Positions 7,305 through 64,000 of a stretch of 64,000 bases of DNA are shown piece after piece. Source of the DNA: a virus. The DNA is taken from IMG/VR virus record IMGVR_UViG_3300033402_000312; one strand, given 5' to 3'. Position 1 is the stretch's first letter. Each line of letters starts with the position of its first letter. The notes beneath the pieces were generated by a model, which did not search any database, was not told the origin of the DNA, and worked only from the letters and a program-made list of their open reading frames with translations. Both the position numbers and the translations under genes were made by a program.

Positions 7305-7311
7305 TGCTTCC

Positions 7312-8123: not shown

Positions 8124-8124
8124 A

Positions 8125-9905: not shown

Positions 9906-10411
9906 GCACGGAGATGACCAACTGGAAAACGCTCTACAAGAAAGAGTCGTGGGGCAACCACAGCTTCGGCATAGAAATCCGCGCCGCCATAGATCGCCCG
10001 CTCAACGAGAACGACGAGATGGCGATGCACCGGATCGCAGACGAGATCGAGGAAGCGATCATGCGGGAAACCATGCGCCTCGACCCGGAGGCACAAAAAG
10101 CCAAGAAGGAAGAGAACACGAAGCTGATGGAATGCTTCGGCGGGGAGAACATCTATGCGCTAGAAATCCCGAACGGGTACTCCCCAAGCTGGGAGTATTC
10201 GCAAACTCCATGGTACAAGGTCACGACGCGCAAAGGCGTCGTCGAGATTGGCTGGCGCAAGCGCGTGATCGAGATAAGCTGGGAGCCGTCAGTGAACAGC
10301 GAAGCCTACGACCTTTTCCCCGATGAGGATGTCACCAGAATGGGGCGCACGATCCACGCTTGGGGATACGACAAGGCGAAGGCGTACATCTCGCGGCTTC
10401 TGGCACCGTAA
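9902..10411 (+). CDS. hypothetical protein
   Basis: ATGA overlap with the Nudix stop. The N-terminal 339 nt of the listed 9563 ORF overlap the Nudix gene and are probably not translated. Confidence 0.55.
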   Translation: MSTEMTNWKTLYKKESWGNHSFGIEIRAAIDRPLNENDEMAMHRIADEIEEAIMRETMRLDPEAQKAKKEENTKLMECFGGENIYALEIPNGYSPSWEYSQTPWYKVTTRKGVVEIGWRKRVIEISWEPSVNSEAYDLFPDEDVTRMGRTIHAWGYDKAKAYISRLLAP

Positions 10412-10452
10412 AAGACTGAAAACACAGGCATTATTTCCAGACAAAACCGCCT

Positions 10453-10482
10453 CCCCCGTTGTATACTGAAGGCGGAGGGAAC
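10453..10482 (+). promoter_or_regulatory. second copy of the CCCCC...TGTATACT...GGAGGG cassette
   Basis: TGTATACT at 10460-10467. GGAGGG at 10474-10479. GTG at 10483. Confidence 0.55.
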
Positions 10483-31002: not shown

Positions 31003-31080
31003 CCGATTTTTCCGAAAAAACGTTTACAAAATCCCTAAGCAGCGGGGAAGATAAAATCCCCTAAGCAAAATAAGGGATTG

Positions 31081-44383: not shown

Positions 44384-44384
44384 A

Positions 44385-50300: not shown

Positions 50301-53300
50301 AGCACGGGATCAGAATACGAAGGTGAACAGGACAGGTTAAATTCCGCTGCCTACGATCTCGCTATGCAGGCACGGAATCGTCTGACCACCGCTGGTTATG
50401 ATGGGGTTCGCTATAAGAACGTGGTCGAGGGCGGTCACGCATGGATCGCGTTCGCGGCGAACCAGATCAAGAGCGTCTATTCCCAGTTCAACCCGAAAGA
50501 CCCAAGCTTCACCGCTTCCAAAGACGCAGCAACCCATACGCCAGAATATGCGCAGAAACTTGTGGAAGCGCTGAAGCAGACCGTCACGGACGCAGACTTC
50601 CGGGTTATCGGCTCCGTGGGAGCCGGGCAAGAATCCGAGAACGACATTGACATCATGGTGGACATTCGCCCGGATGCCGCCTTTAAGGACGATCAAGCTT
50701 GGATCGACACCAGCGGCCTGACCGGGGCGATGAAGCTGCTGGGCTTCGACTACCTCGGGCCGTCCGATTTCGCACCGGGGGAAAGCGCGGAGAAGTCCGA
50801 GGCGAGCGGCAAATACCTCGACCCGGCAGGCTCCGGCGTCGAGAAGTTCTTCAACCCGACGACATACCACACGGTCGAGTTCTGGTTCACCGAGTCCGGC
50901 ATGCCGAAGGAAGCGGATTGGAGGAGCAAGTACGTGCTGCCGACAGCCCTTGCGTTGGGTCTCGGCGCTCCGTCCAGCGTGCACCCCGACGAAGTGACTC
51001 CGCAGCAAATCGAGCAGGTGCGCGAGGAGCAGGCGAAAAAGCGGATCGACGCCCTCGTCGAGGCGATCTCCCGCGCCGAGGGCGCTAAGCCGGAACTCAA
51101 CAACCCCGGCAACCTCGTGGACTTCAACACGGGCAAGATCAGGACGTTCGATTCGTGGGAAGAGGGCCGCAACGCGTTGGCTGAGCAGCTTGAGCGCATC
51201 GCTGACGGCGACCACCCGAACATCAAGCCCGACATGACGCTGCGCGAAGCCGGGCTGGTCTACAGCAACGGCGACCCGAACTGGGCGAAAAACGTCTCGC
51301 GCATCATGCGCGTGCCGGAAACCATAAAGATGCAAGAACTCGTCCGTGGACGCACGGAAGAGGCGGGCGTGGCTGCGACGCCTTCCGGCAAGATAGGATG
51401 GCTCAGGAAGGCTGCGGGCTTCGCGTTCAAGTCCTTCAAGAAGCTCTGGCACGTCGGCAGCATGAACCCCAAGGACAAGCGGCCCGGCTCGCTGGAGGGC
51501 GTCGGTCTCAGCGTGAGCGTACATCCCGAGGAGTGGAAAGGGATCGCGGAGATCGGCGGCCCGACATGGGAACTGACCAAGCCGGGCAACAAATTCCTGA
51601 ACTTCTACCGCCTCAGCAAGACGCAGCGCAAGCAGATCGCCGTGTGGGGCGTCGCGAACGGCTATGCCACCGAGGTCGCCATCGGCTGGCGCTGGTATTT
51701 CACGGACGCCGAGACCGACGAAGAGCGCTACATGGAGTTCGAGACCGAGCAGGAAGCCCAAGAGGAGATGGAAGGTCAAGGCATAGGCGAGGTGCGCCCG
51801 GCGAAAGGCTCCAGCATGAAGGGCACGGAAAAGCTCAAGCAGCGCACCAAGAACCCGAAGGCGGACGATATGGTCGTCGCCTTCGACTTGCTTGTCACCG
51901 TGTATGCCGAGGATGAGCTTGACTGCGACGGCGTCTGGTGGGAAGACATCTTCGATCCCGCCTCCCTGTCCGCGCCTCGCGGCGTAATATTCCCTGGAAA
52001 ATTGTCATCATGGAAAAAGAAGAAGGTCGAAGAAGTAGATGACGAAGGTGCTGCACCGATCAATAGGGAAATCGATATGCTGGAGCAGGAGATCAAAAAA
52101 CACGGCGACCCCACCGGAATGCTGACTGATCACCTGAAAATGCTCAAGCAGAAAAAGTCCGGCGCAGCGAAGACCGCAGCTAGGCTTGCTGCCTACGACC
52201 CAGCCCGTGCCGCGCAATTTTCTGTTAGGGTTATCAAACATCCCACCAACCCCAACATGTTTGATGTGCGAGCCGTGGACGTAGGTAAGGGGTGGGCGGG
52301 GACGGTTTCCGTTACACAGAAAGGCAAGGATTTCTATGTCACTCAGTCTGTGCTTTACAAGCCCTACCAAGGCATTGGTTTGGGGTCCCGCTTGTACGCC
52401 TGGGCGATGGATGAGGCCGAAAAGCGGGGCGGTGAACGTTTTTGGTCTGACGTAGAAGTCAGCTTGGACGCTCAAAAGATTTGGGAACGGTTGGACGCCG
52501 GTTTTGATGAAGAAAGCGGGAGATTTTTTATCCCGTTGATGGCCACGGTCAAAACCGCAACCGCAGAGTTCTTCCGGGACTCGAACGGGGTGCTGTGGGC
52601 GAAAGACCCCGCGCTGTCGCCGAACCCCGTCTCCATCCCCAACCGAATCCCTGAGGGCGAGCGCGAAGCCTACGTCGCCGAAAAGCTGAGGCAGCAGGGC
52701 GAGATGGACGCTGCCCTTAAAACTGAACGGGCGAAAAAGAACCCGGCGAAAAAGAACCCGTGGCAAGAGTGGAACCACGGGCTTGGTACAGTTGACCCAA
52801 CGGAGGTCGTCAAGAAGCTCGAAGCGGAAGGCAAGGAAGTCAAGGTGCGGCTCATCCCCTTGGGCTATTACAAGATTTGGTTCAGGGACAAGACCGCAGC
52901 GAAACCCAAGCCCAGCCCGACGCAGGTCGCCGCGCTGCAAGGCATGGCTGCGGGCGACGGCACCATTCACCGGGAGAAGGGCGGCTTCTGGATTTGGGGC
53001 GACTACATCGTCGGTTGGGACAGTCTTGGATTGCCTATCTTCAAAGGCGAGGAGGAAGGCAGGCATCTTGAGCCGCGCCCGTGGGTTGACATCCGCACCG
53101 TGCGGGCGATGGAGTCTCGCGGCTGGGTGAAGCGCACGAACAAATTTCCTGAAGAGTGGAGAGATAACCGTAAAATAACGGACGCTGGGCGTGCGCTCAT
53201 CGCAGGCAAGACTGCCGATCTTGACGAGGATGATGACATTTATGACCAGCCTGTTGAGTACTTTGCCCACAGTGCGTGTTGGCTTTACGCCTTCGCGCTG

Positions 53301-53981
53301 CACAAACTCACAGGGCTGCCGATGGTATCAATCTCTGATCCCCACGAAGGTGTTATTCATGCCGCCGTCGAGCGTGAAGGAAAGCTTCTGGACTCTAAGG
53401 GCGAATTCACGCTTAAGCAAATCGGAAAACGCTATGGGCTGAAAAACCCGTTCACTCTTCCGTTGACCGAAGAAGGTGTGGAGTATTTTTACGGCATCAA
53501 CGAGCACGAGCTTGAACGGGCGATGGAAGTTGCCCGCGAGCAGGTCAAAAAGCTGGGCATTAAGACCGCAGCGGCAGAAATCTACCTGTACCACGGCACC
53601 TCGGAAGACAACTGGAACGCGATCATGGAAGCCGGGGGTGTGGTTCCCGCTGGAAGCTGCTGGGGCACCGAGCGGGTAGCCGAATACTACGCAGAGGACC
53701 GCGCTGAGGCGCAGACGAACGACGCCATCTACAACGAATTGGGCACGCGGGTTGAGGAGGCTATCATCCGCGTCCCGCTTTCGCGGTTCGACGAGACGAA
53801 CCTCAAGCCGGACGGCAACTCCGTCGCGGAGCCGTTGACTTTCACCTTGCAGCGTAGCGAAGAAGACCTTTATGCTGACTGGCAGAAAGCCGGGGGCACA
53901 TGGCAGGATTCGCTCCGCATCTACGAATCCGTGCGCTACGACGCGCCCATGAAAGTCACCAAAAAAGACCGCTACGTATAG
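44385..53981 (+). CDS. giant polyvalent multidomain protein 2 (about 3,198 aa)
   Basis: Start MRWYHGTS one codon after the previous stop. Seven YHGT-type ART/Tpt1-like modules. Three Cys/His modules (GCGIWAVDFA, GGCWLFALAL, SACWLYAFAL). Nudix (WGTIGGAVKKGMSPQQSAKTEMAEETGY). MNT nucleotidyltransferase (GSVGAGQESENDIDIMV). Possible GH73-like (AEGAKPELNNPGNLVDF). GNAT (QGIGLGSRLYAW). Confidence 0.85.
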   Translation: MRWYHGTSRQNAKKALKEGILKPGEDSIYDVDVPRDDAVYITSEYQIAKYYAEEHSWQGKGGVVLEVAANEGSLMPDEDAIYDALHEGAVVLGEKSSKKLGQAIRKAWLRHWKSIEGEGDTFEEAWEAWGNVEAEGSSGIAEEMKELTEEIHRENPALSKAIIEASGKAAHIGPVKVMGIAKKQTAKPDLSNDQEPLEAARQMLAELGGNEKLCGKSKVVHGYWIETHTLGCRNAADEPESEWEANHKRIRDEYANDGVSIVLDDKNSSNFATVTPQSKTAAKKVRVVKTPGFMIEVPQERRKTFFIRPKTPLEYWAFKNRPRVFVNEPLIFTFGGKPVAEAVAVRVEAPGRGEGEYRHWHKVYWKPTSFKRFRITASERPGVLYHISRRTNRQSILKNGLLPLLKEYKDVERAPGIYFFQSIDAAKDYGFYHAQHVNQALDIWECRIPEGYEVRHDPHPEMDEFDAWMSHEPLPPENLKVVDTILVPKSTADAPPPYKSQRGDKFKRMYEERVREFAYRGKGAAGKPVPWKSDLLRWDRLTAWEDRNTANDDAEYTSEEIEEKYRLAPPSETRRGVNAALLKSAKANFPTFEQVIDKKTDTNNEFEIDMWKGEELGNRRKEYDELLRQMKALKFPLTVYRCFALKEGEKIDYSSLGGSWSLNSRAAYLVSHELFPDDEGYDYKTVAGTIQSPDAVDWLNTMRAWLTLPDEEEIRLKPGAKVGVRGKTRTATGKKFYHGTKKKNLDDILKNGLKVEMSEAHTEWGRAIYLACDAYTAANYEGMHGGGEPWAILEIDGSKLNEYYMRPDDYDFPDLWEQAGRKENWAHQTWQTSLKVSCQIAYLADIPASAIKVHPYKKNNVPAKNTQKEFLDSHTVEQVAEHFGITPAAAAKAKSEGIVKKADMTEDPDYYMTEGCGIWAVDFARKNGGEIYILSAERGEEWSEEIPYEVTHAFVKKDGRTYDVRGERTPDKMAWELSMGEYTVKGPWTPDEFEAKFMGSTDDKPLFGKESAKTATMPPRGRFMWHVTPMRNVPSIKKNGLIPQVGERSAEGGEKPGIFLFPTKQGVEDALTGWLGESFENTPEELAIVEVAVPEDVQMEDSTDYTTQFEVVIRQPLPANYIRRIYTEKEFEDHLARIASKTADKVIGVGEGDEYWAGEGNAASGVLPVCPSKGTVCLAWRSPYVMSPDCWGTIGGAVKKGMSPQQSAKTEMAEETGYHGGIRLIPAYTFLDRGFKYFNFVGVVPNEFPFSPGEGHGWETDHIAWVPYEQVVKDMQENPGDYHPGLLKLFANSKDAIERALKIKKQGAIKTASIDTNGWITPDGDWEPLEDGETHVNAIQRLLNRDDVFEKDGLKEGYIRVHYQDYVPGQPIEAYFLCEKRTSHNFALVREAIHDLPSQTKQVAVVFKHPEDYQTYTFEEALEDFPRRAVFAAEKQSAIVRRGAFDPLWMKRWVEGGCWLFALALQPLIPGSVFVGLAREGEVLEHVGVRKGDRYYDVRGEMDETEFNYGADSEVPLHIVPVDYEQVMRDGEYGSWLGHEDEFETLPEMQAAKEAVQKVFGKGKTAEVNPTAPPPSSSRLPCPSGKRKFYDEVSAIGPHKQWSKGTPNLRAYKCPICGWWHLTSKPQRVTANLHGMGTFYHGTSWAEADQIKVEGLKAHPWAFNDKSYVWCTLIEQLGISYGESKTENSSEPGYVVSFEWDYDQTEPDPEHGEEYEDVYRRIEGDVPASAITGINYYAPDHRLVKTAAGQKQADAALNDFLAGRISKEEYKAMLSGESQPEQAPQQQHLFPSSQDAKFKAWFDGSKVVDKNGNPMPVYHGTRSSVEFEEFSVEGPPQTDSYENETTSSGSGADPTAFLGAHFAEETNVANLFAEGKGWTGVRYEGEQPKPRVIQVFLRITNPKDFGSEHNLREFINQGKIADDEVTNLVMENRDGINYWEPEQEQAAQEWGEKYENDQAFRTEVNRYLWEQHSTGSEYEGEQDRLNSAAYDLAMQARNRLTTAGYDGVRYKNVVEGGHAWIAFAANQIKSVYSQFNPKDPSFTASKDAATHTPEYAQKLVEALKQTVTDADFRVIGSVGAGQESENDIDIMVDIRPDAAFKDDQAWIDTSGLTGAMKLLGFDYLGPSDFAPGESAEKSEASGKYLDPAGSGVEKFFNPTTYHTVEFWFTESGMPKEADWRSKYVLPTALALGLGAPSSVHPDEVTPQQIEQVREEQAKKRIDALVEAISRAEGAKPELNNPGNLVDFNTGKIRTFDSWEEGRNALAEQLERIADGDHPNIKPDMTLREAGLVYSNGDPNWAKNVSRIMRVPETIKMQELVRGRTEEAGVAATPSGKIGWLRKAAGFAFKSFKKLWHVGSMNPKDKRPGSLEGVGLSVSVHPEEWKGIAEIGGPTWELTKPGNKFLNFYRLSKTQRKQIAVWGVANGYATEVAIGWRWYFTDAETDEERYMEFETEQEAQEEMEGQGIGEVRPAKGSSMKGTEKLKQRTKNPKADDMVVAFDLLVTVYAEDELDCDGVWWEDIFDPASLSAPRGVIFPGKLSSWKKKKVEEVDDEGAAPINREIDMLEQEIKKHGDPTGMLTDHLKMLKQKKSGAAKTAARLAAYDPARAAQFSVRVIKHPTNPNMFDVRAVDVGKGWAGTVSVTQKGKDFYVTQSVLYKPYQGIGLGSRLYAWAMDEAEKRGGERFWSDVEVSLDAQKIWERLDAGFDEESGRFFIPLMATVKTATAEFFRDSNGVLWAKDPALSPNPVSIPNRIPEGEREAYVAEKLRQQGEMDAALKTERAKKNPAKKNPWQEWNHGLGTVDPTEVVKKLEAEGKEVKVRLIPLGYYKIWFRDKTAAKPKPSPTQVAALQGMAAGDGTIHREKGGFWIWGDYIVGWDSLGLPIFKGEEEGRHLEPRPWVDIRTVRAMESRGWVKRTNKFPEEWRDNRKITDAGRALIAGKTADLDEDDDIYDQPVEYFAHSACWLYAFALHKLTGLPMVSISDPHEGVIHAAVEREGKLLDSKGEFTLKQIGKRYGLKNPFTLPLTEEGVEYFYGINEHELERAMEVAREQVKKLGIKTAAAEIYLYHGTSEDNWNAIMEAGGVVPAGSCWGTERVAEYYAEDRAEAQTNDAIYNELGTRVEEAIIRVPLSRFDETNLKPDGNSVAEPLTFTLQRSEEDLYADWQKAGGTWQDSLRIYESVRYDAPMKVTKKDRYV

Positions 53982-53982: not shown

Positions 53983-54693
53983 TTATTTTGGCGGTGCGAG
54001 TTCCGTAAAATTTTTGCCCCAACGGGTTGCAGCCGCTTTTCGTGAAGACCATTTCTTGTACGCATCGGAACGTGAGTCCCGCATAACCCTTTTCTGTGAT
54101 GATTTCCTGAAGACGAAACGGCGCACTCTGTGTCTCGGCCCACGCGGTCGTAAAGGCATACCGCTTTTCTTTAACCTGCGATGCACAGTCATTGGGCTGC
54201 ATTCAAATTTTTCTGCCAATTCCTTAATTGAAAGCCCTCCCCCATACAACTTGGCAAGCTTATCGTCTGCTATTCTATGAATCAACCGAAGGGGTTTTTT
54301 GATTGGTATTTTTCTCATCTTCCACCGAGACAAATAGGTGGCACCTTGCCTCAAAATTTTTGTATTATCCTTGGCTAAACCGAGCATGCGGTTGCAGAGT
54401 CCACAAAGCACACCTCGCACGCACTTTTCACAGAAGCGACCCGATGGACAGCATGTATGGTCATGGTCAACGTTCCAACTGTTCGGAACCGCCAAGCAAA
54501 GAGGTTTGCGGCATACCGGGCACCTGCCTTTTTGCCATTCCACTAAGCGTACCACCGGGAGTCCAAACAGCCCAAGTCGTCGGAAGGCGTTCATCTGCTT
54601 TACGTCGTGTAGTTCTTGGCAGGATAAGCACCAAAAACTTTCTACGCGACGTAGATTTTTGCCAATGTTTACGCTGTCAAGATATATTTCCAA
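53983..54693 (-). CDS. endonuclease VII family protein with C-terminal HTH
   Basis: CPVCRKPL...NVDHDHTCC...CEKCVRGVLCGLCNRMLG. HTH LSIKELAEKFECSPMTVHRRLKK. Convergent with the giant gene, 1 nt apart. Confidence 0.7.
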   Translation of the reverse strand: MEIYLDSVNIGKNLRRVESFWCLSCQELHDVKQMNAFRRLGLFGLPVVRLVEWQKGRCPVCRKPLCLAVPNSWNVDHDHTCCPSGRFCEKCVRGVLCGLCNRMLGLAKDNTKILRQGATYLSRWKMRKIPIKKPLRLIHRIADDKLAKLYGGGLSIKELAEKFECSPMTVHRRLKKSGMPLRPRGPRHRVRRFVFRKSSQKRVMRDSRSDAYKKWSSRKAAATRWGKNFTELAPPK

Positions 54694-54820: not shown

Positions 54821-55063
54821 ATGACTTATTTGGTTAAGCGGAAATCGCGCCTGATCTTTACTACCGCCGACACTGTCCGGTACAAAGGCCGCGAACGGGA
54901 GATCGTGATCGAGGTCTCGCCGTTTATTGCCACCTGCCGACTGGCGGGGACGCGGACGCGATACGAAATGTCGTGGTCTGGAATTTTTCAGCATGCTGCA
55001 CGCGTGTACGCTGACAGGCTGCGTGCGGAGCGCAAAGCAAAAAAGAAAGGGGCGAGCCGATGA
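54821..55063 (+). CDS. hypothetical protein
   Basis: Strong RBS precedes the start. ATGA overlap with the next gene. Confidence 0.5.
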   Translation: MTYLVKRKSRLIFTTADTVRYKGREREIVIEVSPFIATCRLAGTRTRYEMSWSGIFQHAARVYADRLRAERKAKKKGASR

Positions 55064-55608
55064 GAGTCACGAACCGCACGAAATGGAGTACGCTGGACAT
55101 CATCAGGCTGGTGTACCGCATCGCGCAGGACGAATTGAATCCGGGCGGTTTGAAAAATGCCCACATCGCAATTAGGTACCGACGCGGAAACGGCATCAGC
55201 GGGCGGTGCTGTTACGGCACGATCCAAAACCCGAACGTCCGCATGAGGCTCAGCCTGCCGCGCATGCAGATTGACCCGGTTTCGCTGGCGATGGTCATTG
55301 CGCACGAGCTTGCGCACGCAAGGGGGCTGCATCACCGCGATATGAATGCAAAGCGGTACAAGTGGGGCGAAGGCTGGCGCGAGCTTTACGCCTACGCCAA
55401 GGATTTCCCCATCGGCATCAAGCCCGATCCCCCGAAGCCCACTCTGAACGACAAGCGCCGCGCAGAACTGACCAAGGCGCAGGGCATGGTCATCAAGTGG
55501 ACGCGCAGGCACAGACTCGCATCCACAACACTCAAAAAGTGGCAACGGAGGGTGAGGACTATCGAGCGTCGGCTAGTTGTCGCAGTTCCCGCCGCACCTT
55601 CCGCCTAA
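55060..55608 (+). CDS. putative zinc metallopeptidase (HExxH)
   Basis: MVIAHELAHARGLHH motif. Confidence 0.6.
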   Translation: MRVTNRTKWSTLDIIRLVYRIAQDELNPGGLKNAHIAIRYRRGNGISGRCCYGTIQNPNVRMRLSLPRMQIDPVSLAMVIAHELAHARGLHHRDMNAKRYKWGEGWRELYAYAKDFPIGIKPDPPKPTLNDKRRAELTKAQGMVIKWTRRHRLASTTLKKWQRRVRTIERRLVVAVPAAPSA

Positions 55609-55840
55609 CCTTCCTATGGTAGCGCCTTTTGCCGCGTGGGCGAATATGCTTCGCCCACTCCGGCGAGGGCGTTTGAGTGATCCCGTCTGGTTTCCCATAA
55701 CTTCCTTGAAGCAGCCCCTCCAGGCGCAGGTCTTTACGGAGTCCTTCGCTGCGCTTGTGCGGGTAGCGGGTCTCCAACTTGAAGCGTTCTTGCTTTTGAG
55801 TTGCCATGCGTGCATGGCAACCCCCCGTTTGACAAACCAA
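55559..55840 (-). CDS. hypothetical basic protein, tentative
   Basis: The ATG abuts the stop of the upstream minus-strand gene. Overlaps the 3' end of the plus-strand gene by 50 nt. Confidence 0.3.
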   Translation of the reverse strand: MVCQTGGCHARMATQKQERFKLETRYPHKRSEGLRKDLRLEGLLQGSYGKPDGITQTPSPEWAKHIRPRGKRRYHRKVRRKVRRELRQLADAR

Positions 55841-56554
55841 TCATCTCGTCTTGCTTGCCCATCTTTTGTCCAGTTCCCTTTGGGTTTTCCCGTTGACTTG
55901 CCGCTTGGCGGTCACGTCTTTGGCGTACTCGGGGAGGGCGATGCGCACGATCCTCACCTCCCCGTTTTCCTCTACCAAGTCCTCGTAGGAGTTCTTGAAC
56001 GTGTAGTGCTTGGTCTCGAACTCGAACCAATAACCTTCGATCTTCTCGTACCAGTGGTCGGCATTCACAAAGATTTTCGGGTTCGGAGCCTTGTACGGCT
56101 CCGGCTTCCACTTGTTGCGCCTCCGCCAATAGGCAGCCTCGGCGGCTCGTTCCGCCTCGGTTTTCTCGCGCTTCTCTTGCAGGGTGCCGTCCGTGTCCAC
56201 GAAGAACGGTCCGTAGCGCCCGTTGTGACCGACGTCGTAGTTGTTGGGCACGACATAAGACCAGACATGCTGCCGAAGGTGGTAGCCCCGGATGGCGCGG
56301 GAGTCCGCGAACGCGCAAATGTCCCGATACACGTCATCCCAAGGGCGACCGCAGTTCGCCTTCAGAAAACGCCAAAGCGGACGCGAGCGGTCGCCGAGTT
56401 CCTTATGGCCTTCTTGCCTGCGGCGGGCAGAAGAGATGAAGCGCGGCAGATCGTCCGCGTCCGCATTCTTGAAGCGAAAGCGGCGCGAGGAAGCTTTCCC
56501 GTAGCTGCCGCTGCGCCCGGTGTCAACGAGCAGGTCTTTCATGTCTTGACGCAT
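55841..56554 (-). CDS. hypothetical protein
   Basis: Trp/Tyr/Phe-rich, coding-like. The antisense ORF 55577-56599 is Leu/Pro/Val-rich and looks like an artefact. Confidence 0.55.
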   Translation of the reverse strand: MRQDMKDLLVDTGRSGSYGKASSRRFRFKNADADDLPRFISSARRRQEGHKELGDRSRPLWRFLKANCGRPWDDVYRDICAFADSRAIRGYHLRQHVWSYVVPNNYDVGHNGRYGPFFVDTDGTLQEKREKTEAERAAEAAYWRRRNKWKPEPYKAPNPKIFVNADHWYEKIEGYWFEFETKHYTFKNSYEDLVEENGEVRIVRIALPEYAKDVTAKRQVNGKTQRELDKRWASKTR

Positions 56555-56595
56555 CGCTTATTTCAATCTCCATACTCGCTGTCGCACTTGTCAGC

Positions 56596-57111
56596 CTAAT
56601 CTTTCCCCGTCTTGTAATCCCCGTAGAATTTCCATGCGAGCCTCGCAAGGCGAACAAGAGCTTCGTCAAAGGTGCTGGCTCCCGTGTCAAGGCGCGTGTC
56701 GTGAAAATGGCGGAGATAACTCCGGGCGTGGTCTTCCTTGGCCTCAAATTCGGGCTGGTTGTAACCGTACTCTAAAGGGCCGAATTCCAGCCAGCACTCG
56801 GCGTATTTGTTCTTGGTCTTGTCGTTATCAACTGTGCCGTGCCCGCCCGGCTTGTTGGTCTTGGCGTAGAAGATGTTGAGATTCTCTTCAATAGCGTGGC
56901 GAACGAGGCGGCGGCAAACGGCCCATGTATTTCCGCCCTCGTCCTTCACGAAGCGATAGTGCTTTGCGCTGAATTGTTTCGCGTGCTTCTCGTCCCTGAC
57001 TTCGATGCGCTCAGGCAGGCAAAGCCTGGGATGCCCGTACAGGAACCACCACGCCTCATAGCTGTTGGTGATCTTGTGGTAGTGCTTTTTCTTCATGTGT
57101 TTTTCCTTCAT
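56596..57111 (-). CDS. hypothetical protein
   Basis: 171-aa ORF. Confidence 0.55.
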   Translation of the reverse strand: MKEKHMKKKHYHKITNSYEAWWFLYGHPRLCLPERIEVRDEKHAKQFSAKHYRFVKDEGGNTWAVCRRLVRHAIEENLNIFYAKTNKPGGHGTVDNDKTKNKYAECWLEFGPLEYGYNQPEFEAKEDHARSYLRHFHDTRLDTGASTFDEALVRLARLAWKFYGDYKTGKD

Positions 57112-57329
57112 GGCAGGTTTTTTATCTCTTGCTTAAACGCCTTCACTTTGGGCAGGCACCTGCTGCACCAAAAATCATCATTATAGCCCGTGATGATGTG
57201 GTCGCCGAACCACTCCAGATGGGTGACGCAGCGGTCGCACAGCGATAGCTTGATCCGTCTATGCAATTTGGTGAGATCATCCTCACCGCTATGCATGGCG
57301 GCGAAAAGGCGGTTGTCCATCAGTCCCAC
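57108..57329 (-). CDS. small zinc-binding protein
   Basis: ATGA overlap. CDRC...CSRC motif. Confidence 0.45.
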   Translation of the reverse strand: MGLMDNRLFAAMHSGEDDLTKLHRRIKLSLCDRCVTHLEWFGDHIITGYNDDFWCSRCLPKVKAFKQEIKNLP

Positions 57330-58006
57330 AACGAGCGATAGTGCTCGACGAAGAGCTTCATGCCCTCTTCGAAAATCTTCTGGTCGCGCTCTTCAAGGAG
57401 GCGGGAAGCCTTGAAACGATCATCCTTGATCTTCTTCCAGCCTTCCTTGCTGACGCCCTCGGGGCGGTGCAGCGGATATTCCCCGAGTTCCTCCTCGTAA
57501 AGCCCCTCGTCCATGCGGCGGCTCGCCTCGAAAGCAGCGATCATTTTGTCCAATACCGCGTCCCATCGCGCCTCGGCGATCCTGAACTCCGGGTCGTCGT
57601 GGTAGCCCTGCTCGTTCACGGGGAGACCGTCGAACATAGGCGTGGGTATGCCGTGCTTGTCCTTCTTGAGCTTGCGGAGAATGTCTGGCATCATTCCGTC
57701 GAGCCACCAATCGATGCTCCATACGGCGCGGTCGTCCCAGCCGCGAGTTAGGCGCTGGTAGGCGAACTTGATTTTGCGGCAAGCGTCGCGGGGGTTGACG
57801 AGCCAATGGTTCGTCCAGAAGCGGCGGACTGCCCAGTACGCACGGGTGCGCAGGGGGTCTTTCTTCGGGTCTTTGTCGAAGATGTCCTCGAAAGGAATGA
57901 GCTTGGAATCGCCCGATGGCGGGGAATAGGGTTCGTTGCGCAGGTAGAAGTCCGCCCGGCGCAGTAATGCCTTGAGCTTCATGACAGTGCCCTCCTTAGG
58001 GTTCAC
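57320..58006 (-). CDS. hypothetical protein
   Basis: 228-aa ORF. Confidence 0.55.
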   Translation of the reverse strand: MNPKEGTVMKLKALLRRADFYLRNEPYSPPSGDSKLIPFEDIFDKDPKKDPLRTRAYWAVRRFWTNHWLVNPRDACRKIKFAYQRLTRGWDDRAVWSIDWWLDGMMPDILRKLKKDKHGIPTPMFDGLPVNEQGYHDDPEFRIAEARWDAVLDKMIAAFEASRRMDEGLYEEELGEYPLHRPEGVSKEGWKKIKDDRFKASRLLEERDQKIFEEGMKLFVEHYRSLWD

Positions 58007-58109
58007 TATAGAAATCTAACTGTCATGTGCTCCTCAAGGGGAAGTGTCCCAGTTCATCTACAAATACCAGCCAAAGTCCGAAAAGTCAAGAAGAAAAGTA
58101 AGTTCTCAC

Positions 58110-59087
58110 CTAAACCGATGGGCGATGGTGGTGATGGTGGTGGTGATGGTGGCGATGGTGCTTGTGGTGGTGCTTGTGGTGCTTATGTTTATGGTGTTTG
58201 TGGTGCTCATGGTGCTCGTGGTGCTCGTGGTGCTCGTGATGCTCATGGTGCCCCTCATCCACCAGCTTGCGCATCATTTGCGGCTTGCCCTGCGCTGCGT
58301 AGTAGCGGTGCGAAAGCTTGTTGTTCACGCCGAACTCGGGCTGGTTTTCCCACACGCGCTCGTTCCAGTGAACCCAGTCTTGTATCCCTTGCGAGCCGAT
58401 CTGCGGGTGCCACAGGTGCAAGACTTGGCTGGGCAGGGTCTTGTGAAGACCGTACAGGGTGTCCATGGCACGCATCGCGGCATGGTCCTCGCCGCCCCAG
58501 CCACGGAAGCGCACATCCCAGCCCCCCACAAGCTCGAATGCCTCGCGGGGCACGATTTGGATCATCGCCCCGTACCAGTGCCCGACGCCGGGATCGGTGT
58601 CCCCCAAAACGAAATCCGCTGGCGGAGGCGAGGAAAACCTGTAAGGCAATGCCGGGTCGGATTCCAGCAAGATGCGCGATGCCTTCTCCGTCAAACGATA
58701 GAACTTGCGGTAGGGGACGAACCACAGCTTATAGCCCATTCTCCGTGCGTGGCGGATTTCCTTGGCGCAATAGAGAACGACATCGGCGGGGACGTATCCG
58801 TCCGCATCCACGATCACAAACACATCGCCTGTTGCCCTGGACGCCGCATTGTTCACTGCCTCCGACTTGGAAAAGGGCCCCTCCGTGACCGGGTCGTCGC
58901 CTATGACAATTTCGGCACCCGGAAGCTGGGCAGCCCAGTACCTCTTGAGCCATTCAACGTTCCTCATACGGGGACTCGACGGGTCGGAGCAGCGGAACGG
59001 AATCAAAATGCTAACGCCATAGCCCCTGCGAAAGCGCGAGGAAAGCGCCGCGAGCGACAGTATCGCTATGAGCAAGGCGTATATCAT
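58110..59087 (-). CDS. family-2 (GT-A) glycosyltransferase with C-terminal poly-His/Glu/Lys tail
   Basis: DxD motif VIVDADG. GGWDVRFRGWGGEDHAAMRAMD (GT2 C-terminal motif). Tail of about 40 aa reading HHEHHEHH...HHHHHHHHH. Confidence 0.75.
   Translation of the reverse strand: MIYALLIAILSLAALSSRFRRGYGVSILIPFRCSDPSSPRMRNVEWLKRYWAAQLPGAEIVIGDDPVTEGPFSKSEAVNNAASRATGDVFVIVDADGYVPADVVLYCAKEIRHARRMGYKLWFVPYRKFYRLTEKASRILLESDPALPYRFSSPPPADFVLGDTDPGVGHWYGAMIQIVPREAFELVGGWDVRFRGWGGEDHAAMRAMDTLYGLHKTLPSQVLHLWHPQIGSQGIQDWVHWNERVWENQPEFGVNNKLSHRYYAAQGKPQMMRKLVDEGHHEHHEHHEHHEHHEHHKHHKHKHHKHHHKHHRHHHHHHHHHRPSV
58113..58260 (-). repeat. imperfect GTGGTG(C/A)T-type microsatellite encoding the poly-His tail
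   Basis: Runs of gtggtgctc / gtggtgatg units read directly from the sequence. Confidence 0.7.
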
Positions 59088-59890
59088 TTCAACTCCTTTC
59101 CAAGCGCCTTAAAGGCATCGTAAATTGCGAACTTTACGTCCTCAACATAAAACCTTTCGGGCAGCATCACTTTCCCCGTAACAAACGGCGTCCGTATCGA
59201 AGCGCTGTAGTCGCGGAACTTAAAGTCCCCGCCGTCCTTTGCCAGCTTCGAGCACATCTCTACCCGGCGCGGGATGCCGAAGGCGTCCGCTGCTATAAGG
59301 CCGTGCAACGAAGAAGTCACGATCTTGCGGCAAGCGCCGATTTGCCGCAGCACCCCAAGCGGGTCTCCCATCGGGTTGATGACTTTGACGGTATAAGGCT
59401 TAGGAATCAACGGGATAAACCTCCCCGCTAGCTCCTTATCCTGCCAGTGGGGCACGATCCCCAAGTCCCATTGCTTTTCCTGCGGGCCGACAAGCTCATC
59501 AGCCAGTATGCCGGGATCGCCCAAGGCGTAGCTGCCTGGTATCCCCCTCGCCGACAGCGGCCCCCGCACGGCAAGAATCTTGGCGGTCACGCCGGACTTA
59601 AGCTGCTGCAATTGCAGCCGGGAATCCTCGATCAGCCTGCCGGAGCCGAGGATATACCCGTCCCAAAGCGGGGGGATATGCTCAAGGATCGAACCCACGG
59701 AGGCTATCGAAGAATGGGAAATCGTGTCCCACTTGACCTTGATCTCGGCAAAACGCTCCAATAGGAGCGGGGATATGGTATCGCCAAAATTAGGGACTTG
59801 ATTCCACCAATAGGCCTTGAATACCCGGTTTCTGAAGGGGTTTATGAGCATCGCGTCTCGCTCCTCTACTAACGAAACGCACACATTCAA
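59084..59890 (-). CDS. polysaccharide pyruvyl transferase-like protein
   Basis: NFGDTISPLL near the N-terminus and KIVTSSLHGLIAADAFGIPRRVE near the C-terminus. Confidence 0.5.
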   Translation of the reverse strand: MNVCVSLVEERDAMLINPFRNRVFKAYWWNQVPNFGDTISPLLLERFAEIKVKWDTISHSSIASVGSILEHIPPLWDGYILGSGRLIEDSRLQLQQLKSGVTAKILAVRGPLSARGIPGSYALGDPGILADELVGPQEKQWDLGIVPHWQDKELAGRFIPLIPKPYTVKVINPMGDPLGVLRQIGACRKIVTSSLHGLIAADAFGIPRRVEMCSKLAKDGGDFKFRDYSASIRTPFVTGKVMLPERFYVEDVKFAIYDAFKALGKELK

Positions 59891-59928
59891 AATTTTTTGA
59901 CTTGCAGGAAGAGGGCGAAGCCAAGGGG

Positions 59929-60495
59929 TTAGTTGTGGTCGTTGTCGGCGTACTGCTCTTCGGTTGCAGCTTCCATTGCTGCATCATGCTGCTCGGCCAG
60001 GGCGTCCGTGCTTGCCTGCACTGTTGAAGTGTTCCCGAAGTTGTTGACCAAAGGCTCGACCACTGCGGCGGACGCAATGGTTGCTGGCGTCGGCTGCTCC
60101 GTTGCCTGCACGGGCTGTCCCTGCGGGGGCGCATCCTGAAGCTCGTACGTGAAAGCGAACTCCTTCGCAGTTTCGACGGTCTCGCCGTCCGCAACCTCCC
60201 ACTTGATGTTGATGCGCTTCTGCTGGAGGGACTCCATCTCTTCCTTCGTCAGCACGACTTTGTCGTTTAGCTTCCTGATAAGGCTTACTGCCAGCACCGA
60301 GAGGCGCTGGTTCTGACCGTAAAGCTCGCGGAACTGCCCGATGAACGAACCAATGACCGTGCTCGGGTCGTTCTTTAGATCGTAGTTTTCTTTCTCAAGC
60401 TGCTCAACGTACTTCCTGCACGACGAGAGCATCTGCTTCTTCAGCGTGTTGCGCTGCCGGATCGCGTCCAGCCCCTTCGATCTCCTGCCCATCAT
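59929..60495 (-). CDS. hypothetical coiled-coil protein
   Basis: 188-aa ORF. Confidence 0.5.
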   Translation of the reverse strand: MMGRRSKGLDAIRQRNTLKKQMLSSCRKYVEQLEKENYDLKNDPSTVIGSFIGQFRELYGQNQRLSVLAVSLIRKLNDKVVLTKEEMESLQQKRINIKWEVADGETVETAKEFAFTYELQDAPPQGQPVQATEQPTPATIASAAVVEPLVNNFGNTSTVQASTDALAEQHDAAMEAATEEQYADNDHN

Positions 60496-60824
60496 TCTCC
60501 CTCGTCGAACTCTTCGTCGAACCTGCTAACGTCCGTCCAAGACCCCTCGCCGAACCGCTTCTCGAACTCGTTGAAGCAGTCAACGCAAATCCAGATCACG
60601 GTGTCGCCCGTCTCGCTGACCTGCTTGTAGAACGCTGGCTTGCCGCACAGCCTCGCCCCGGCGTCGATCAGGCGTTGCTCGTCCACCATGTCGGTGACGG
60701 CGAAAGTTCCCTCCGGGAAGTCTGGCTTGAAGACCCTTTGGCAGGTAGGCATTATACTTGCTCCGGCTCGTTTACTACGATGTGCCAATAGCCCTTCAAC
60801 AGACCGTTGTTGAACGACAAGCAC
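60492..60824 (-). CDS. hypothetical protein
   Basis: ATGA overlap. CVDCFNEF motif. Confidence 0.5.
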   Translation of the reverse strand: MLVVQQRSVEGLLAHRSKRAGASIMPTCQRVFKPDFPEGTFAVTDMVDEQRLIDAGARLCGKPAFYKQVSETGDTVIWICVDCFNEFEKRFGEGSWTDVSRFDEEFDEGE

Positions 60825-60924
60825 ACGCTTTCGAACGGGATGCCAACCATCTCGGCTACTTCGTGAAAATCTTTCGCATCGTCCAAGAGGGCCTGCCTTA
60901 TCTCTTCTAGGTAAGGTGCCGCCA

Positions 60925-61200
60925 TTAGAGTTCTTCTTTCATAGCAGATGCGGCTCGAAGGGGCGCTCCGTGCTGCTCAAGGCACCGCACCGCGATGGCT
61001 GCGATTTTGCGCACGATCTCCAACTTCGCTGTGTCGCTATCGGACTTTGTCGCTGCCTCGTCCAACACCTTGCTGTACCGCCGGATGTAAGTCGCGAGCG
61101 CATCGATCTCGTGCGGGTTCTCGCCGAAAAGGTCGCGCTGGTAGGCAAGCTCCCCGTCGATGGCGGCATAGACGTTGCTGCGGGTTTCTCTGCCCATCAC
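60925..61200 (-). CDS. hypothetical protein
   Basis: 91-aa ORF. Confidence 0.45.
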   Translation of the reverse strand: MMGRETRSNVYAAIDGELAYQRDLFGENPHEIDALATYIRRYSKVLDEAATKSDSDTAKLEIVRKIAAIAVRCLEQHGAPLRAASAMKEEL

Positions 61201-61421
61201 TTTTGCTCCGGCTCGCCCCCGGAGAGCGGGAGTTCAAGCTGCGCCGTGTCCGCCTGCTCCGCCAAGACCTTGCCCAGCTTCGCGTCGAACAGGGGGTCGA
61301 TGTAGTGCTCCAACCCGTAGGAGTCGCGGTAGGTAAGCTCGGTGAGCTTGGTGAACTTCTCGCCGTCAACGACGAACGTGTCGCCGACTTTGAGAAGGGT
61401 AAGAAAGTGTTCGATTTTCAT
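61197..61421 (-). CDS. hypothetical protein
   Basis: ATGA overlap. Confidence 0.45.
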   Translation of the reverse strand: MKIEHFLTLLKVGDTFVVDGEKFTKLTELTYRDSYGLEHYIDPLFDAKLGKVLAEQADTAQLELPLSGGEPEQK

Positions 61422-61448
61422 TTAGTTGCTCCTCCCCTTTGATACTGC

Positions 61449-63977
61449 TCAGATCGCCTCTTCCTCGATTTCTTTCGGGACGGGCTGCGAGATCAGCACG
61501 CCGTGGTCGGTCAGGTATTTCTCCGCGAGCTTCTTGATGTGGTCGGGGTCAACTTGCAGTTTTTGGACAAGGTCTTGGTTCGGGTCCCTAATGCCCTCGA
61601 TCTGCTGCTTCTTGATTCCCAACACGTCGGACACGACCGGGTCAGAGCCTTCGTCCGCCAGAAGGTAGTAGCTGGTGACAGGCTCATCCTGCCCGTCGCG
61701 GTGGAGGCGGCCTTCGCAGTTCCCGACTATCGCTGTTTTTCCGTTACGGCGCACTACCAACGTGCCCAGCCTATTGCTAACGCACCAAACCCGTTCCCCC
61801 GGTGTGCTTACGCAAAGCGTTAGCTTAGATCGGTCTTTTTGGGATGTCCCTGCCACAGAACGATAACCCATCGGCTTTACATGCAATAGCCAATTGCCGC
61901 TGGGCAAATCAGCTATGTTTGCCCGCCAACCACGCCTTACGCAGAGACTTTGAAGCCTGTCCACAAAAGCCCTCCTGCCGGATGTTATTCGATAGGTAGC
62001 TTGCACAAAATTTCCTGAATCCGTACTGCCATCGCCCATGTCAACCGCTTCTAGGAACAAGGCAAGTTGACGCTCATCCATGTCCTCCAACAGCGGCGAC
62101 AGGTCTTTGTCGAGATATTGAGCTAAACGGTTCCAGCCTTTGTTAGACTTTAGATAGCCCGGCGCTTTCGGTCCGAACTTTGGGACACAAAAACGCAAAA
62201 GCGGGGCACTTCTCTTCCACTGGCTGTTCTTTGTTATTTTGTTCACAGTGAAGTGGAACCCGCATGAAGTAAGGCAATGCTCTATCTCATCCTTGAACGG
62301 TGAGTTCTCATTTTGGCAAACAGTCAAAGTGCCGGACAAAGGATTGAAGCTGCCGTCTGTGCAAAACCAGCCAAGGAATCGTATCTCATCGTCAGTGAGC
62401 GGAACACCTTTTGCGTGCTGCTTTCCGGCCACAGGAATATGGTAAAACTGGCTCCGGGTTGCCAAATCTTGCGCTGTCGTTACCCCCCATTTAGACAGTC
62501 TCTTGTGGTTTTTGCCGACCCCGCTCCGGTAAACCATCCTATGCCCGCCCGTAACGCGCAAGTCCATGCCCGGTTGCCGCAGAGCAAACATCTGTTCCCC
62601 GACTGCTAACTGACGATCAACTACGCGCTCCGCAGGCGTCCAGTCTACGCTTCCGGTCGCCAGATCAAAGCCAGCAACAGAGTCGCCCACTACGATCTCT
62701 CCTCGCTTTTTGAATCCAAACGGCGTCAAAATTTCCGTCGCATCGTCAAGGCACTGCTCGTGGACCCCAGGCGACCAGTCAAGCTCGCCGAACACGCAGA
62801 TGTGGCACATGTCCTGCAAGCCGTCCATGCCCAGCCCGGCGCGGAGCGAGATAACCATGACCTTCGACCGGCCGGACAGGAACTCTTGCTTCGCCCATTC
62901 CTTTTGGTTTGGGCTTTCGGTGCCCGTGTACATCACCGGGTTGAGGTCCGCAACACCGTGGGCCGGGTTCCCCCGGAGCTTCTCCAGCCAAATCTCGTAC
63001 ACGTCGCGGTGCCAGCCGTAGAGAACCACAGGCGTTTCGTTCTCCTCGACGAGGAACCGCACGAAGTCGGCGACGAACGGGGCCTTGGCGATGCCGGTCG
63101 CCTGCCGCATCCTCATGTCGAACTCGCCTGCTGCCTGCATCTTCTGCCCCCTGAACTCCTGGCTCTGGCGTAGGATCAGCTTGGCAAGCTCGATGGCTTG
63201 CCCCTTGAGCTTCTTGAACTCCTCGGGGTCGGACTGAACCCACTGGGGCACGCGGATGACGCCGGGAAGCTCGCGCTTGACCTCCTTCCGCGTCCTGCGG
63301 AGCATGACGCCCGTCTCACGGGCGTACACGCCGAACGCGGCGGGGTCGTCGATCACGTATCTCTGCCCCTGGAACTCGCACCATTCCCGGCTAAACTCCT
63401 CCCACGTGCCCAGCGCGTCCGGCACGATGACGTTGCACACGTTCCAGATTTCGCCGCCGTAGTTGTAGATCGGCGTGGCGCTCAGCCCCAGCCGGAAGTC
63501 CACGCTGTCCGCGACCCGCTTGGCAGCCTCGTACTTTTGCGTGCCTTTGTGGCGCAGTTCCTGGCATTCGTCGAACGCGACGCTTCGGACGACGCCGTCC
63601 AACGTCTCCGCCCAGCCGTCCAGCTTGTGGTAGTTCGAGATAATGACGTCCGGCAGCCTTCCCTGCTTGTCGAGGATGTCGTAAGGGGTGCCCCTCTTCA
63701 GGATGTGGCACCGCAGGTCGGTGAACTTCTCAAGCTCGGACGCCCACTGGAACGGGAGGTGGGACAGTGTTACGACCAGCGCCGGGCGGAGCCTGGGGTC
63801 TATGAAGCCGCAGAACGCCACCAGCGTCTTGCCTAACCCCACGTCGTCCGCCAGCAGCAGACCGCCCGTGGTCAGCCACATGTTCGCGGCCAAGCCTTGG
63901 TACTCGCGGGGCGGAAGCTTCAGCGGGAAGAGCTTGTCGTTGCCCTCGCCACGCAGGAACCTGTCCACAAGGCTCAT
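61449..63977 (-). CDS. SNF2-family helicase interrupted by an intein
   Basis: Motif I LADDVGLGKT. Motifs V/VI DWSPGVHEQ | intein | CEGRLHRDGQDEPVTSYYLLADEG. Confidence 0.85.
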   Translation of the reverse strand: MSLVDRFLRGEGNDKLFPLKLPPREYQGLAANMWLTTGGLLLADDVGLGKTLVAFCGFIDPRLRPALVVTLSHLPFQWASELEKFTDLRCHILKRGTPYDILDKQGRLPDVIISNYHKLDGWAETLDGVVRSVAFDECQELRHKGTQKYEAAKRVADSVDFRLGLSATPIYNYGGEIWNVCNVIVPDALGTWEEFSREWCEFQGQRYVIDDPAAFGVYARETGVMLRRTRKEVKRELPGVIRVPQWVQSDPEEFKKLKGQAIELAKLILRQSQEFRGQKMQAAGEFDMRMRQATGIAKAPFVADFVRFLVEENETPVVLYGWHRDVYEIWLEKLRGNPAHGVADLNPVMYTGTESPNQKEWAKQEFLSGRSKVMVISLRAGLGMDGLQDMCHICVFGELDWSPGVHEQCLDDATEILTPFGFKKRGEIVVGDSVAGFDLATGSVDWTPAERVVDRQLAVGEQMFALRQPGMDLRVTGGHRMVYRSGVGKNHKRLSKWGVTTAQDLATRSQFYHIPVAGKQHAKGVPLTDDEIRFLGWFCTDGSFNPLSGTLTVCQNENSPFKDEIEHCLTSCGFHFTVNKITKNSQWKRSAPLLRFCVPKFGPKAPGYLKSNKGWNRLAQYLDKDLSPLLEDMDERQLALFLEAVDMGDGSTDSGNFVQATYRITSGRRAFVDRLQSLCVRRGWRANIADLPSGNWLLHVKPMGYRSVAGTSQKDRSKLTLCVSTPGERVWCVSNRLGTLVVRRNGKTAIVGNCEGRLHRDGQDEPVTSYYLLADEGSDPVVSDVLGIKKQQIEGIRDPNQDLVQKLQVDPDHIKKLAEKYLTDHGVLISQPVPKEIEEEAI
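61719..62753 (-). mobile_element. intein (about 345 aa) with LAGLIDADG-type homing endonuclease; coordinates +/-1 nt
   Basis: N-terminal splice junction Q|CLDDATEILTP. C-terminal junction AIVGN|C. Internal LGWFCTDGSF and LFLEAVDMGDGSTD (two LAGLIDADG-like motifs). Confidence 0.7.
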
Positions 63978-64000
63978 GCGCTCCTTGTGCTCGTTCGCCC

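Follow-up and report, generated by a model that had tools for sequence, protein, structure and literature searches.

The window analysed here, a 64,000-nucleotide stretch of viral DNA (IMG/VR record IMGVR_UViG_3300033402_000312), carries a gene for an SNF2-like helicase whose reading frame is interrupted, on the minus strand at positions 61719-62753, by an in-frame insert of 345 codons. The insert is very probably a full-length mobile intein of the class 1 type, seated in motif VI (Q/C-x-G-R-x-x-R-x-G-Q; here and below the slash marks the point of insertion or splicing) of this phage helicase, and there is little doubt that it consists of a Hint splicing domain into which a two-motif LAGLIDADG homing endonuclease has been inserted. 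The anatomy of the element, its homology to other inteins, its predicted fold, its presence/absence polymorphism among helicase genes and its foreign base composition are all shown by the analysis. The identification as an intein with a LAGLIDADG endonuclease is supported by the agreement of sequence, profile and fold.

Read on the minus strand, 61719-62753 is a stop-free run of 345 codons that begins with CLDDATEILT and ends with NGKTAIVGN; the plus-strand translation of the same interval is full of stops. A first-pass annotation made from the sequence of the window had placed the element at exactly these coordinates, which the continuous translation bears out, the assignment to the minus strand being a refinement. 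The insert occupies residues 409-753 of a minus-strand open reading frame (ORF) of 842 amino acids (aa; 61449..63977) encoding an SNF2-like helicase. The SNF2-type nature of the host, also proposed there, agrees with a match of the full ORF to PF00176 (SNF2-rel_dom, E-value 4.7e-16), and the flanking helicase residues are present as quoted, with ...FGELDWSPGVHEQ at the end of the N-extein and CEGRLHRDGQDEPVTSYYLLADEG at the start of the C-extein. Upstream of the listed ATG at 63977, the helicase frame continues without a stop to the right edge of the window (63998). The residues around this ATG, ANEHKER-M-SLVDRFLRGEGND, align inside orthologues that have about 85 extra N-terminal residues, and ...ANEHKERMSLVDRFLRGEGND of the window is likewise aligned within the longer N-terminal region of the orthologues. 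The gene is therefore truncated by the window, with about 85 N-terminal codons lying past position 64000 by comparison with orthologues; the ATG at 63977 is thus an internal Met, and the true precursor measures about 925-930 rather than 842 aa. The parts of the interrupted gene are as follows.

62754..63998, minus strand: N-extein (DEXH/SNF2 ATPase lobe and first part of the C-terminal lobe), ending ...FGELDWSPGVHEQ; from the ORF, PF00176 and alignments with Tunturi_5 gp268, the LKA5 and DrYang helicases and the metagenomic orthologues P0058 and P0060
61719..62753, minus strand: complete intein, 345 aa, Cys1 to Asn345; from translation, absence in orthologues, homologues, structural model, Foldseek and third-position base composition
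61452..61718, minus strand: C-extein with the +1 Cys, the rest of motif VI (CEGRLHRDGQ) and the helicase C-terminus; from contiguous alignment with intein-less orthologues
61716-61718, minus strand: codon of the +1 nucleophile Cys
61449-61451, minus strand: helicase stop codon TGA

A Pfam scan of the full ORF returned no Helicase_C domain. Excising the 345 residues in silico joins the exteins as ...DWSPGVHEQ/CEGRLHRDGQ... and produces a Helicase_C match that spans the junction and reaches the final position of the profile; this restored match is weak (E 0.0012, 19.5 bits versus a Pfam cut-off of 23.5). PF00176 is still matched after excision (E 1e-16), and many orthologues carry PF00271. In tblastn searches, the spliced 497-aa sequence aligned as one piece, over 100% of its length and with 58.6% identity, to the 'DNA helicase' gp268 of Tunturiibacter phage Tunturi_5, and over 92-95% of its length to several further helicases, including those of Pseudomonas phage LKA5 and of Arthrobacter phages. 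Its matches to intein-less helicases have E-values from 0 to 1e-150 and no gap across the junction. In the multiple alignment, the 345-residue insert is the sole large gap, with motif VI (Q-C-x-G-R-[IL]-H-R-D-G-Q) on both sides of it, and it is missing from the helicases of Tunturi_5, LKA5 and DrYang. The metagenomic orthologues P0058 and P0060 read exactly DWSPGVHEQCEGRLHRDGQDEPVTSYYLLADEG across the insertion site, and the junction DWSPGVHEQCEGRLHRDGQ is identical in both of them and in the spliced window helicase. Both the reappearance of Helicase_C and the alignment of this junction with intein-less orthologues substantiate the earlier proposal that the insert splits motif VI and that its removal restores a contiguous motif. 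Failure of the flanks to align to contiguous SNF2 motifs had been named, next to a lack of splicing, as grounds for abandoning the intein reading; they align in one piece.

A search of 5.8 billion proteins recovered 6,961 relatives of the helicase at E <= 1e-30. The best 120 of these 6,961, which are 55-87% identical to it, all lack the insert (0/120), as follows from their lengths of only 367-615 aa. One intein-free orthologue, P0059, lies on a 187.5-kb metagenomic contig (L007; JGI 3300054963, Ga0556607_0000130, positions 5002-10475) where the gene order downstream of the uninterrupted helicase matches that of window positions 57320-63998: helicase, small ORFs, polysaccharide pyruvyl transferase and family 2 glycosyltransferase. 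The contig hence supplies an intein-free helicase allele from a syntenic genome and is the natural 'empty site' counterpart of the window, and 77 of the 90 nucleotides around the insertion point are identical between the two. A megablast search of window positions 55000-64000 against GenBank phages gave no match, hence no near-identical sequenced phage. Two other intein-less orthologues, P0057 and P0083, have Asp at the position of the +1 nucleophile (HEQ/DEGR); an allele of this kind would not allow splicing and might resist invasion by the intein.

The insert has a guanine-plus-cytosine content (GC) at third codon positions (GC3) of 0.557, while the N-extein reaches 0.892 and the C-extein 0.798; most other genes of the window lie at 0.70-0.85, and the GC profile falls to 0.48-0.51 in the middle of the insert. 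With its GC3 far below that of the exteins, the insert is foreign DNA, and the contrast argues for a recent arrival, not a long decay.

The same element is found in unrelated proteins. A tblastn search with the insert against GenBank phages matched 202 records, 192 of them covering at least 80% of its length, in host proteins that include mycobacteriophage DNA methylases, DNA polymerase I of Escherichia phage nieznany and its relatives, a NAMPT-like gene of a Staphylococcus phage and others; a phmmer-type search matched 56 metagenomic proteins. Whole-element copies have borders that are exact to the residue, C[LFY][DS]xxTE[IV]LT ... [GQAM]N/[CST]. The other host sites include SNF2 motif VI (Q/C-x-G-R-x-x-R-D-G-Q), motif VI of other superfamily 2 (SF2) helicases (Q/CGRxLR and Y/CQMIGRGTR), a metallophosphoesterase motif (GH/[TC]HR) and a GTP cyclohydrolase I motif (EAEH[LM]/CM[TS]MRG), and homologous inteins occupy the same SNF2 motif VI position in the more distant SNF2-type metagenomic proteins P0001, P0013, P0015, P0020 and P0025. 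A hidden Markov model (HMM) of the family, which scores the window ORF at E 1e-106, aligns end to end with Bobi gp73 (E 1e-56), the phosphoesterase/recombination directionality factor (RDF) of Bethlehem (3e-54; 3.4e-54) and nieznany PolA (2e-35). Searched against 1.84 billion cluster representatives, it matched 29,785 proteins at E <= 1e-3, of which 8,701 reached E <= 1e-30, and multi-copy proteins are frequent among them; these numbers make this intein family a very large one, and the match of the insert to it is far beyond chance. The six-frame translation of the window contains no further copy that scores better than E 0.8 with the family HMM.

Residue counts for the family are given for a 34-sequence alignment (30 sequences for Cys1) and for 195 full-length copies drawn from 144 new proteins among the 150 best-scoring HMM representatives. 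Blocks are lettered and positions within them numbered in the usual way (for example, F:4), and the intein is laid out as follows.

62424..62753, minus strand: N-terminal half of the Hint domain, intein residues 1-110; from the family alignment, the profile match to the AceL NrdHF intein and the all-beta model
62715-62753, minus strand: block A, CLDDATEILTPFG, containing Cys1; from the family alignment
62529-62570, minus strand: block B, GMDLRVTGGHRMVY, with Thr68 (B:7), His71 (B:10), Arg72 (B:11) and Met73 (B:12); from the family alignment
61854..62423, minus strand: LAGLIDADG homing endonuclease domain, intein residues about 111-300; from the model, Foldseek and profile
Within 62343-62402, minus strand: helix of LAGLIDADG motif 1, DDEIRFLGWFCTDG, with acidic Asp133
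Within 62019-62081, minus strand: helix of LAGLIDADG motif 2, ERQLALFLEAVDMGDG, with acidic Asp241
61719..61853, minus strand: C-terminal part of the Hint domain, intein residues 301-345; from the family alignment
61746-61802, minus strand: block F, PGERVWCVSNRLGTLVVRR, with Cys324 at F:4 and no block F His
61719-61745, minus strand: block G, NGKTAIVGN, with Val343 (G:5), Gly344 (G:6) and Asn345 (G:7)

Cys1 is invariant in the family (30/30 and 195/195). Block B, which reads DLRVTGGHRMVY in the family alignment, carries the TxxH signature as Thr68-Gly-Gly-His71, with Thr and His each present in 34/34 sequences; among the 195 copies, His occupies B:10 in all and Thr or Ser occupies B:7 in 193. 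Block F reads ERVWCVSNRLGTLVVRR in the same alignment. At the C-terminal junction, G:7 is Asn in 194 of the 195 copies and the +1 residue is Cys (91), Ser (80) or Thr (24). The acidic positions of the endonuclease are similarly conserved (D or E at 133 in 190/195, D at 241 in 186/195), Gln268 is invariant in the family and Lys216 conserved, and the window intein has both. The two LAGLIDADG-like strings pointed out in the first-pass annotation are found at intein residues 127-136 (LGWFCTDGSF) and 232-245 (LFLEAVDMGDGSTD).

The AlphaFold2 (AF2) model of the intein, built from the family alignment, has a mean predicted local distance difference test score (pLDDT) of 91.5 and a predicted template modelling score (pTM) of 0.90. 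Its N-terminal part is all-beta and its C-terminal part beta, whereas helices 121-133 and 227-241 end at Asp133-Gly134 and Asp241-Gly242, respectively; two short loops of the endonuclease domain (residues about 190-200 and 246-250) are modelled with low confidence. A Foldseek search of the PDB placed the TliVMA intein (5.7e-14), PI-SceI (2.5e-11), PI-PfuI (6e-9) and PI-PkoII (1e-6) at the top, followed by I-DmoI (E 1e-6) and I-SceI (5e-4) and also by WhiA LAGLIDADG domains; further matches were to mini-inteins, Prp8 inteins and the Hedgehog autoprocessing domain. A 24-member family profile searched against the sequences of solved structures matched the AceL NrdHF intein (6zgq; 1.8e-9) over the splicing domain, PI-PkoII (1.5e-6), V-ATPase inteins (1e-5), the free-standing LAGLIDADG enzyme 2dch (2e-4) and PI-MtuI (3e-4). 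Taken singly, the 24 relatives matched the Pfam families LAGLIDADG_3 (PF14528; 14/24), Hint_2 (4/24), Hint (2/24) and Intein_splicing (1/24). The original reading of the insert as an intein is upheld by Cys1, T68xxH71, Asn345 and Cys+1 and by the matches of the family profile and the AF2 model to solved inteins, and that of a two-motif LAGLIDADG endonuclease within it by the Foldseek matches to I-DmoI and I-SceI and by LAGLIDADG_3 in the relatives.

It had been remarked from the outset that the element ends in Gly-Asn, not His-Asn, before the Cys, and the translation agrees. Position G:6 is Gly in 187/195 copies and His in only 1/195; a Gly-Asn end is thus the norm of this family and not a sign of decay. 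The usual assisting His residues at G:6 and F:13, which are common but not obligatory, are both missing in the window intein. Their absence does not exclude it from the inteins, because inteins without them splice (PMC5050341, PMC7891396). The Bethlehem RDF intein, which is homologous to the insert over its full length (pairwise E 1e-13), has 317 aa, ends in TGN/S and carries EVWCLRV in block F. It splices efficiently with its native Gly316, and the G316H substitution led to precursor accumulation and slower splicing; a wild-type clone could not be recovered, owing to endonuclease-related toxicity (PMC5050341). In the AceL NrdHF intein, which is without the F:13 and G:6 His, the Arg at B:11 hydrogen-bonds the carbonyl of the C-terminal scissile bond, and a Gly-to-His change at G:6 clashes with this Arg and kills activity (PMC7891396). 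Block B of the window intein contains His-Arg-Met, as does that of AceL NrdHF, and this analogy suggests that Arg72 substitutes for the missing penultimate His. Furthermore, B:11 and G:6 covary: Gly at G:6 goes with a side-chain-bearing B:11 (mostly Arg or Lys, also Asp and Asn), and Gln, Ala or Met at G:6 with Gly at B:11, without exception in 34/34 sequences and with almost none in the 195, a pattern that fits a steric and functional coupling of the two positions.

Motif VI of SF2 helicases is the arginine-finger segment and is needed for activity. For splicing, the order of its chemical steps and the activity and specificity of the endonuclease, we infer the following from homologues. A precursor of about 925-930 aa would be translated and, because motif VI is split, would be inactive until spliced. 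The Hint domain would fold and Cys1, assisted by Thr68 and His71, would attack the Gln(-1)-Cys1 bond to form a thioester; the N-extein would be transferred to Cys+1, and cyclisation of Asn345 would release the intein. Arg72 (B:11) probably polarises the C-terminal scissile bond, Gly344 leaving room for it. An S-to-N shift would then restore ...HEQ-CEGR... in a helicase of about 580 aa. Once free, the intein of 345 aa is predicted to act as a LAGLIDADG endonuclease with Asp133 and Asp241 as catalytic residues, which would cut the intein-less allele (...CACGAGCAG/TGCGAAGGCCGC...) of a co-infecting related phage at or near CAG/TGC, whereupon recombinational repair would copy the intein in. We base this homing step on the presence/absence polymorphism, the foreign composition and the retention of Asp133, Asp241, Lys216 and Gln268.

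Given that the element is an intein, it probably follows the standard class 1 route with Cys324 assisting. The complication comes from Cys324 itself, which had been missed earlier, as had the lack of a His in block F: F:4 is Cys in 34/34 and 183/195 relatives, whereas Asp, the class 1 norm, is found in 7/195. Class 3 inteins use a Cys at F:4 as their first nucleophile, and class 1 inteins normally have Asp there (PMC2807308, PMC4031507). Furthermore, AceL NrdHF, the best-scoring solved relative of the splicing domain (profile E 1.8e-9; Foldseek 23% identity, root-mean-square deviation 2.7 A), is proven class 3 with an unusual M-C-T triplet, and it shares His-Arg-Met, the F:4 Cys, the lack of an F:13 His and the penultimate Gly (PMC7891396). 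The same intein might accordingly be spliced by a class 3 or hybrid route, or Cys324 might relay the acyl group from Cys1 to Cys+1; we regard this as unlikely. Class 3 inteins combine the absence of Cys, Ser or Thr at position 1 with a W-C-T triplet, whereas here Cys1 is present in all 195 copies, only the Cys of the triplet is found (Met73 at B:12, Cys324, Val343 at G:5), the +1 residue is Cys and the class 1 TxxH is kept in block B. The F:4 thiol is moreover dispensable across the family, being replaced by Asp or Ser in 12/195 copies, and the F:4 Asp is typical of class 1 without being part of its definition; the homologous RDF intein was assigned to class 1 by Kelley et al., from sequence only. 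Class 3 as the primary reading was rejected, Cys1 being invariant and two of the three W-C-T positions differing. A hand-made mini-intein (the Hint halves of the relative P0029) searched against the PDB with phmmer gave only spurious matches to designed TIM barrels and weak ones to RecA inteins, without 6zgq; support for the relationship to AceL NrdHF thus comes from the family profile and Foldseek. The intein belongs to a very large phage-associated lineage, marked in the alignments by Cys1, T-x-x-H-R/K-M, W-C in block F, the lack of His at F:13 and G:6 and a Gly-Asn end. Somewhat more doubtful still than a class 3 or hybrid route is the idea that this lineage is mechanistically intermediate between classes 1 and 3, with Cys1 and the block F Cys both catalytic: its members may relay the acyl group from Cys1 through Cys F:4 to Cys+1, or may be redox-gated by a disulfide among Cys1, Cys324 and Cys+1, and the class 3 AceL NrdHF may be an offshoot that lost Cys1. 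If this holds, the lineage would document how class 3 splicing arose from class 1.

Several points weigh against a functional class-1-type intein as we describe it. The near-invariant Cys at the class 3 nucleophile position F:4, together with the proven class 3 nature of the closest solved Hint relative, makes Cys1 the probable, not the certain, first nucleophile. The insert by itself, scanned against Pfam and NCBIfam up to E 10, gave no intein, Hint or LAGLIDADG match and a single, meaningless match (PXB), and the assignment therefore rests on relatives, profiles and predicted structure. Since the F:13 and G:6 His are both absent, the role of Arg72 is borrowed from one solved relative, and the covariation of B:11 with G:6 follows two subclades and thus reflects few independent events. 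The missing His residues, the lack of a Pfam or NCBIfam match and the two endonuclease loops of low AF2 confidence could also be taken as marks of a decayed or domesticated remnant that no longer splices and/or has a dead endonuclease, with the helicase inactive or the insertion tolerated. This is improbable: the 1035-nucleotide frame is intact with all family-conserved junction and catalytic residues, including both LAGLIDADG acidic residues, Lys216 and Gln268; the His residues are missing family-wide, a condition compatible with fast splicing in two characterised relatives; general knowledge of SF2 helicases makes a functional unspliced helicase with a split arginine-finger segment unlikely; and the GC3 contrast speaks against long decay. 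A degenerate intein was accordingly rejected, every family-conserved residue being intact. We give least credence, and very little, to an element that does not act at the protein level, be it an assembly chimera, an intron or other DNA or RNA insertion, or a free-standing endonuclease gene lying in frame. The base composition does change sharply at both borders, and the window also has low-GC free-standing endonuclease genes, but the borders coincide to the codon with Cys1 and Asn345/Cys+1, neither has a stop or start codon, homologous elements sit in frame with equally exact borders in dozens of unrelated proteins, and in the predicted fold the two halves of Hint enclose the endonuclease as they do in PI-SceI.

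The window seems to belong to a large phage genome, from a lineage that is jumbo-phage-like and related to an Acidobacteria phage. Two giant plus-strand ORFs of 3,652 aa (31078-42036) and 3,232 aa (44283-53981) show similarity at scattered points to families of RNA ligases, NUDIX hydrolases and RNA 2'-phosphotransferases as well as to large, uncharacterised proteins of phages; they are reminiscent of the multi-domain 'polyvalent' proteins that large phages carry in the virion or inject. A 289-aa plus-strand ORF (42037-42906; GC 0.467, GC3 0.466) with a GIY-YIG domain (E 1.3e-5) follows the stop of the 3,652-aa ORF without a gap and runs into the start of the gene behind it; it probably encodes a free-standing homing endonuclease. 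Right after the 3,232-aa ORF, in a low-GC island (about 0.48), a 236-aa minus-strand ORF (53983-54693) combines endonuclease VII (E 2e-16) with a helix-turn-helix and is a candidate for a further mobile nuclease gene. With several low-GC endonuclease genes in the window, the intein is one of several selfish nuclease elements here. Elsewhere in the window, a 336-aa plus-strand ORF (14963-15973) has an N-terminal HNH motif fused to an RNA ligase (PHROG 24030, E 6e-117; Pfam RNA_ligase, 1e-30) and counts, like the two preceding nuclease ORFs, among the endonuclease genes in low-GC islands. The family 2 glycosyltransferase at 58110-59087 (minus strand) ends in a tail of about 45 residues, composed almost entirely of His with Glu, Lys and Arg (HHEHHEHHEHH...HHHHHHHHH).

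To an intein specialist, the element is unsurprising, an ordinary member of a very large and already known phage intein family; what is new is the host lineage and the clean evidence of recent invasion, namely a GC3 drop of about 0.3 and the intein-free state of the best 120 orthologues, one of them in a syntenic genome. The case also bears on annotation: standard domain scans miss the intein, and Helicase_C is invisible in the interrupted ORF. With no domain match for the insert, annotation would yield an odd 'SNF2 protein' of 842 aa and overlook that the gene encodes a helicase of about 580 aa together with a mobile element. It adds a further case of phage inteins seated in catalytic motifs of replication enzymes, and the window and the intein-free contig offer a donor/recipient pair for homing studies. 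For intein chemistry, the element represents a huge family with Cys1 and a block F Cys and without both assisting His residues, of which two relatives have been studied so far.

Compared with known systems, the window intein has the fold of PI-SceI, PI-PfuI, PI-PkoII and TliVMA, a Hint domain interrupted by a double LAGLIDADG (template modelling score about 0.55, Foldseek E 1e-14 to 1e-6), and the same expected life style of splicing and homing. These inteins differ from it in sequence (8-13% identity), in having Asp at F:4, His at F:13, a penultimate His and an extra DNA-recognition region, and in size, with 430-540 aa versus 345 aa. The Snf2 intein of Deinococcus radiodurans also resides in an SNF2-family helicase and belongs to class 3; it is reportedly a canonical W-C-T intein devoid of an N-terminal nucleophile. 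The closest solved splicing-domain structure is that of the split AceL NrdHF intein (6zgq, M-C-T class 3), which is probably phage-derived like the window intein and shares with it H-R-M, the F:4 Cys, the loss of the F:13 and G:6 His and the penultimate Gly, as well as a similar block F (EFHCLSVPGKSFVV against RVWCVSNRLGTLVV; AceL ...EFH(C)LSVPGKSFVV...). AceL NrdHF differs in Ala1, Ser at B:7, Thr at G:5 and Ser+1, and it is naturally split, with a GIY-YIG gene between the halves, where the window intein has an in-frame LAGLIDADG; its class 3 mechanism has been demonstrated by experiment; the window intein, by contrast, retains the Cys1 and TxxH of class 1. Full-length homology extends to the inteins of the Bethlehem RDF (gp51; gp52 'phosphoesterase' in GenBank), mycobacteriophage DNA methyltransferase (DNMT; Bobi gp73) and Phapecoctavirus DNA polymerase I (family HMM E 1e-35 to 1e-56). 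Actinobacteriophages are known to carry members of the family, with phosphoesterase/RDF, DNA methylase and helicase proteins as hosts (PMC5050341; 2025 bioRxiv survey). The window intein is only about 24-27% identical to the RDF, DNMT and polymerase I inteins, occupies SNF2 motif VI instead of a metallophosphoesterase motif, methylase or polymerase, and has Cys at +1 and Val at G:5 where RDF and Bobi have Ser and Thr. Nonetheless, all share Cys1, TxxH, xVWCx in block F, a Gly-Asn end, a two-motif LAGLIDADG and a length of 317-345 aa, and all are phage-borne and placed at catalytic motifs of enzymes of DNA metabolism.

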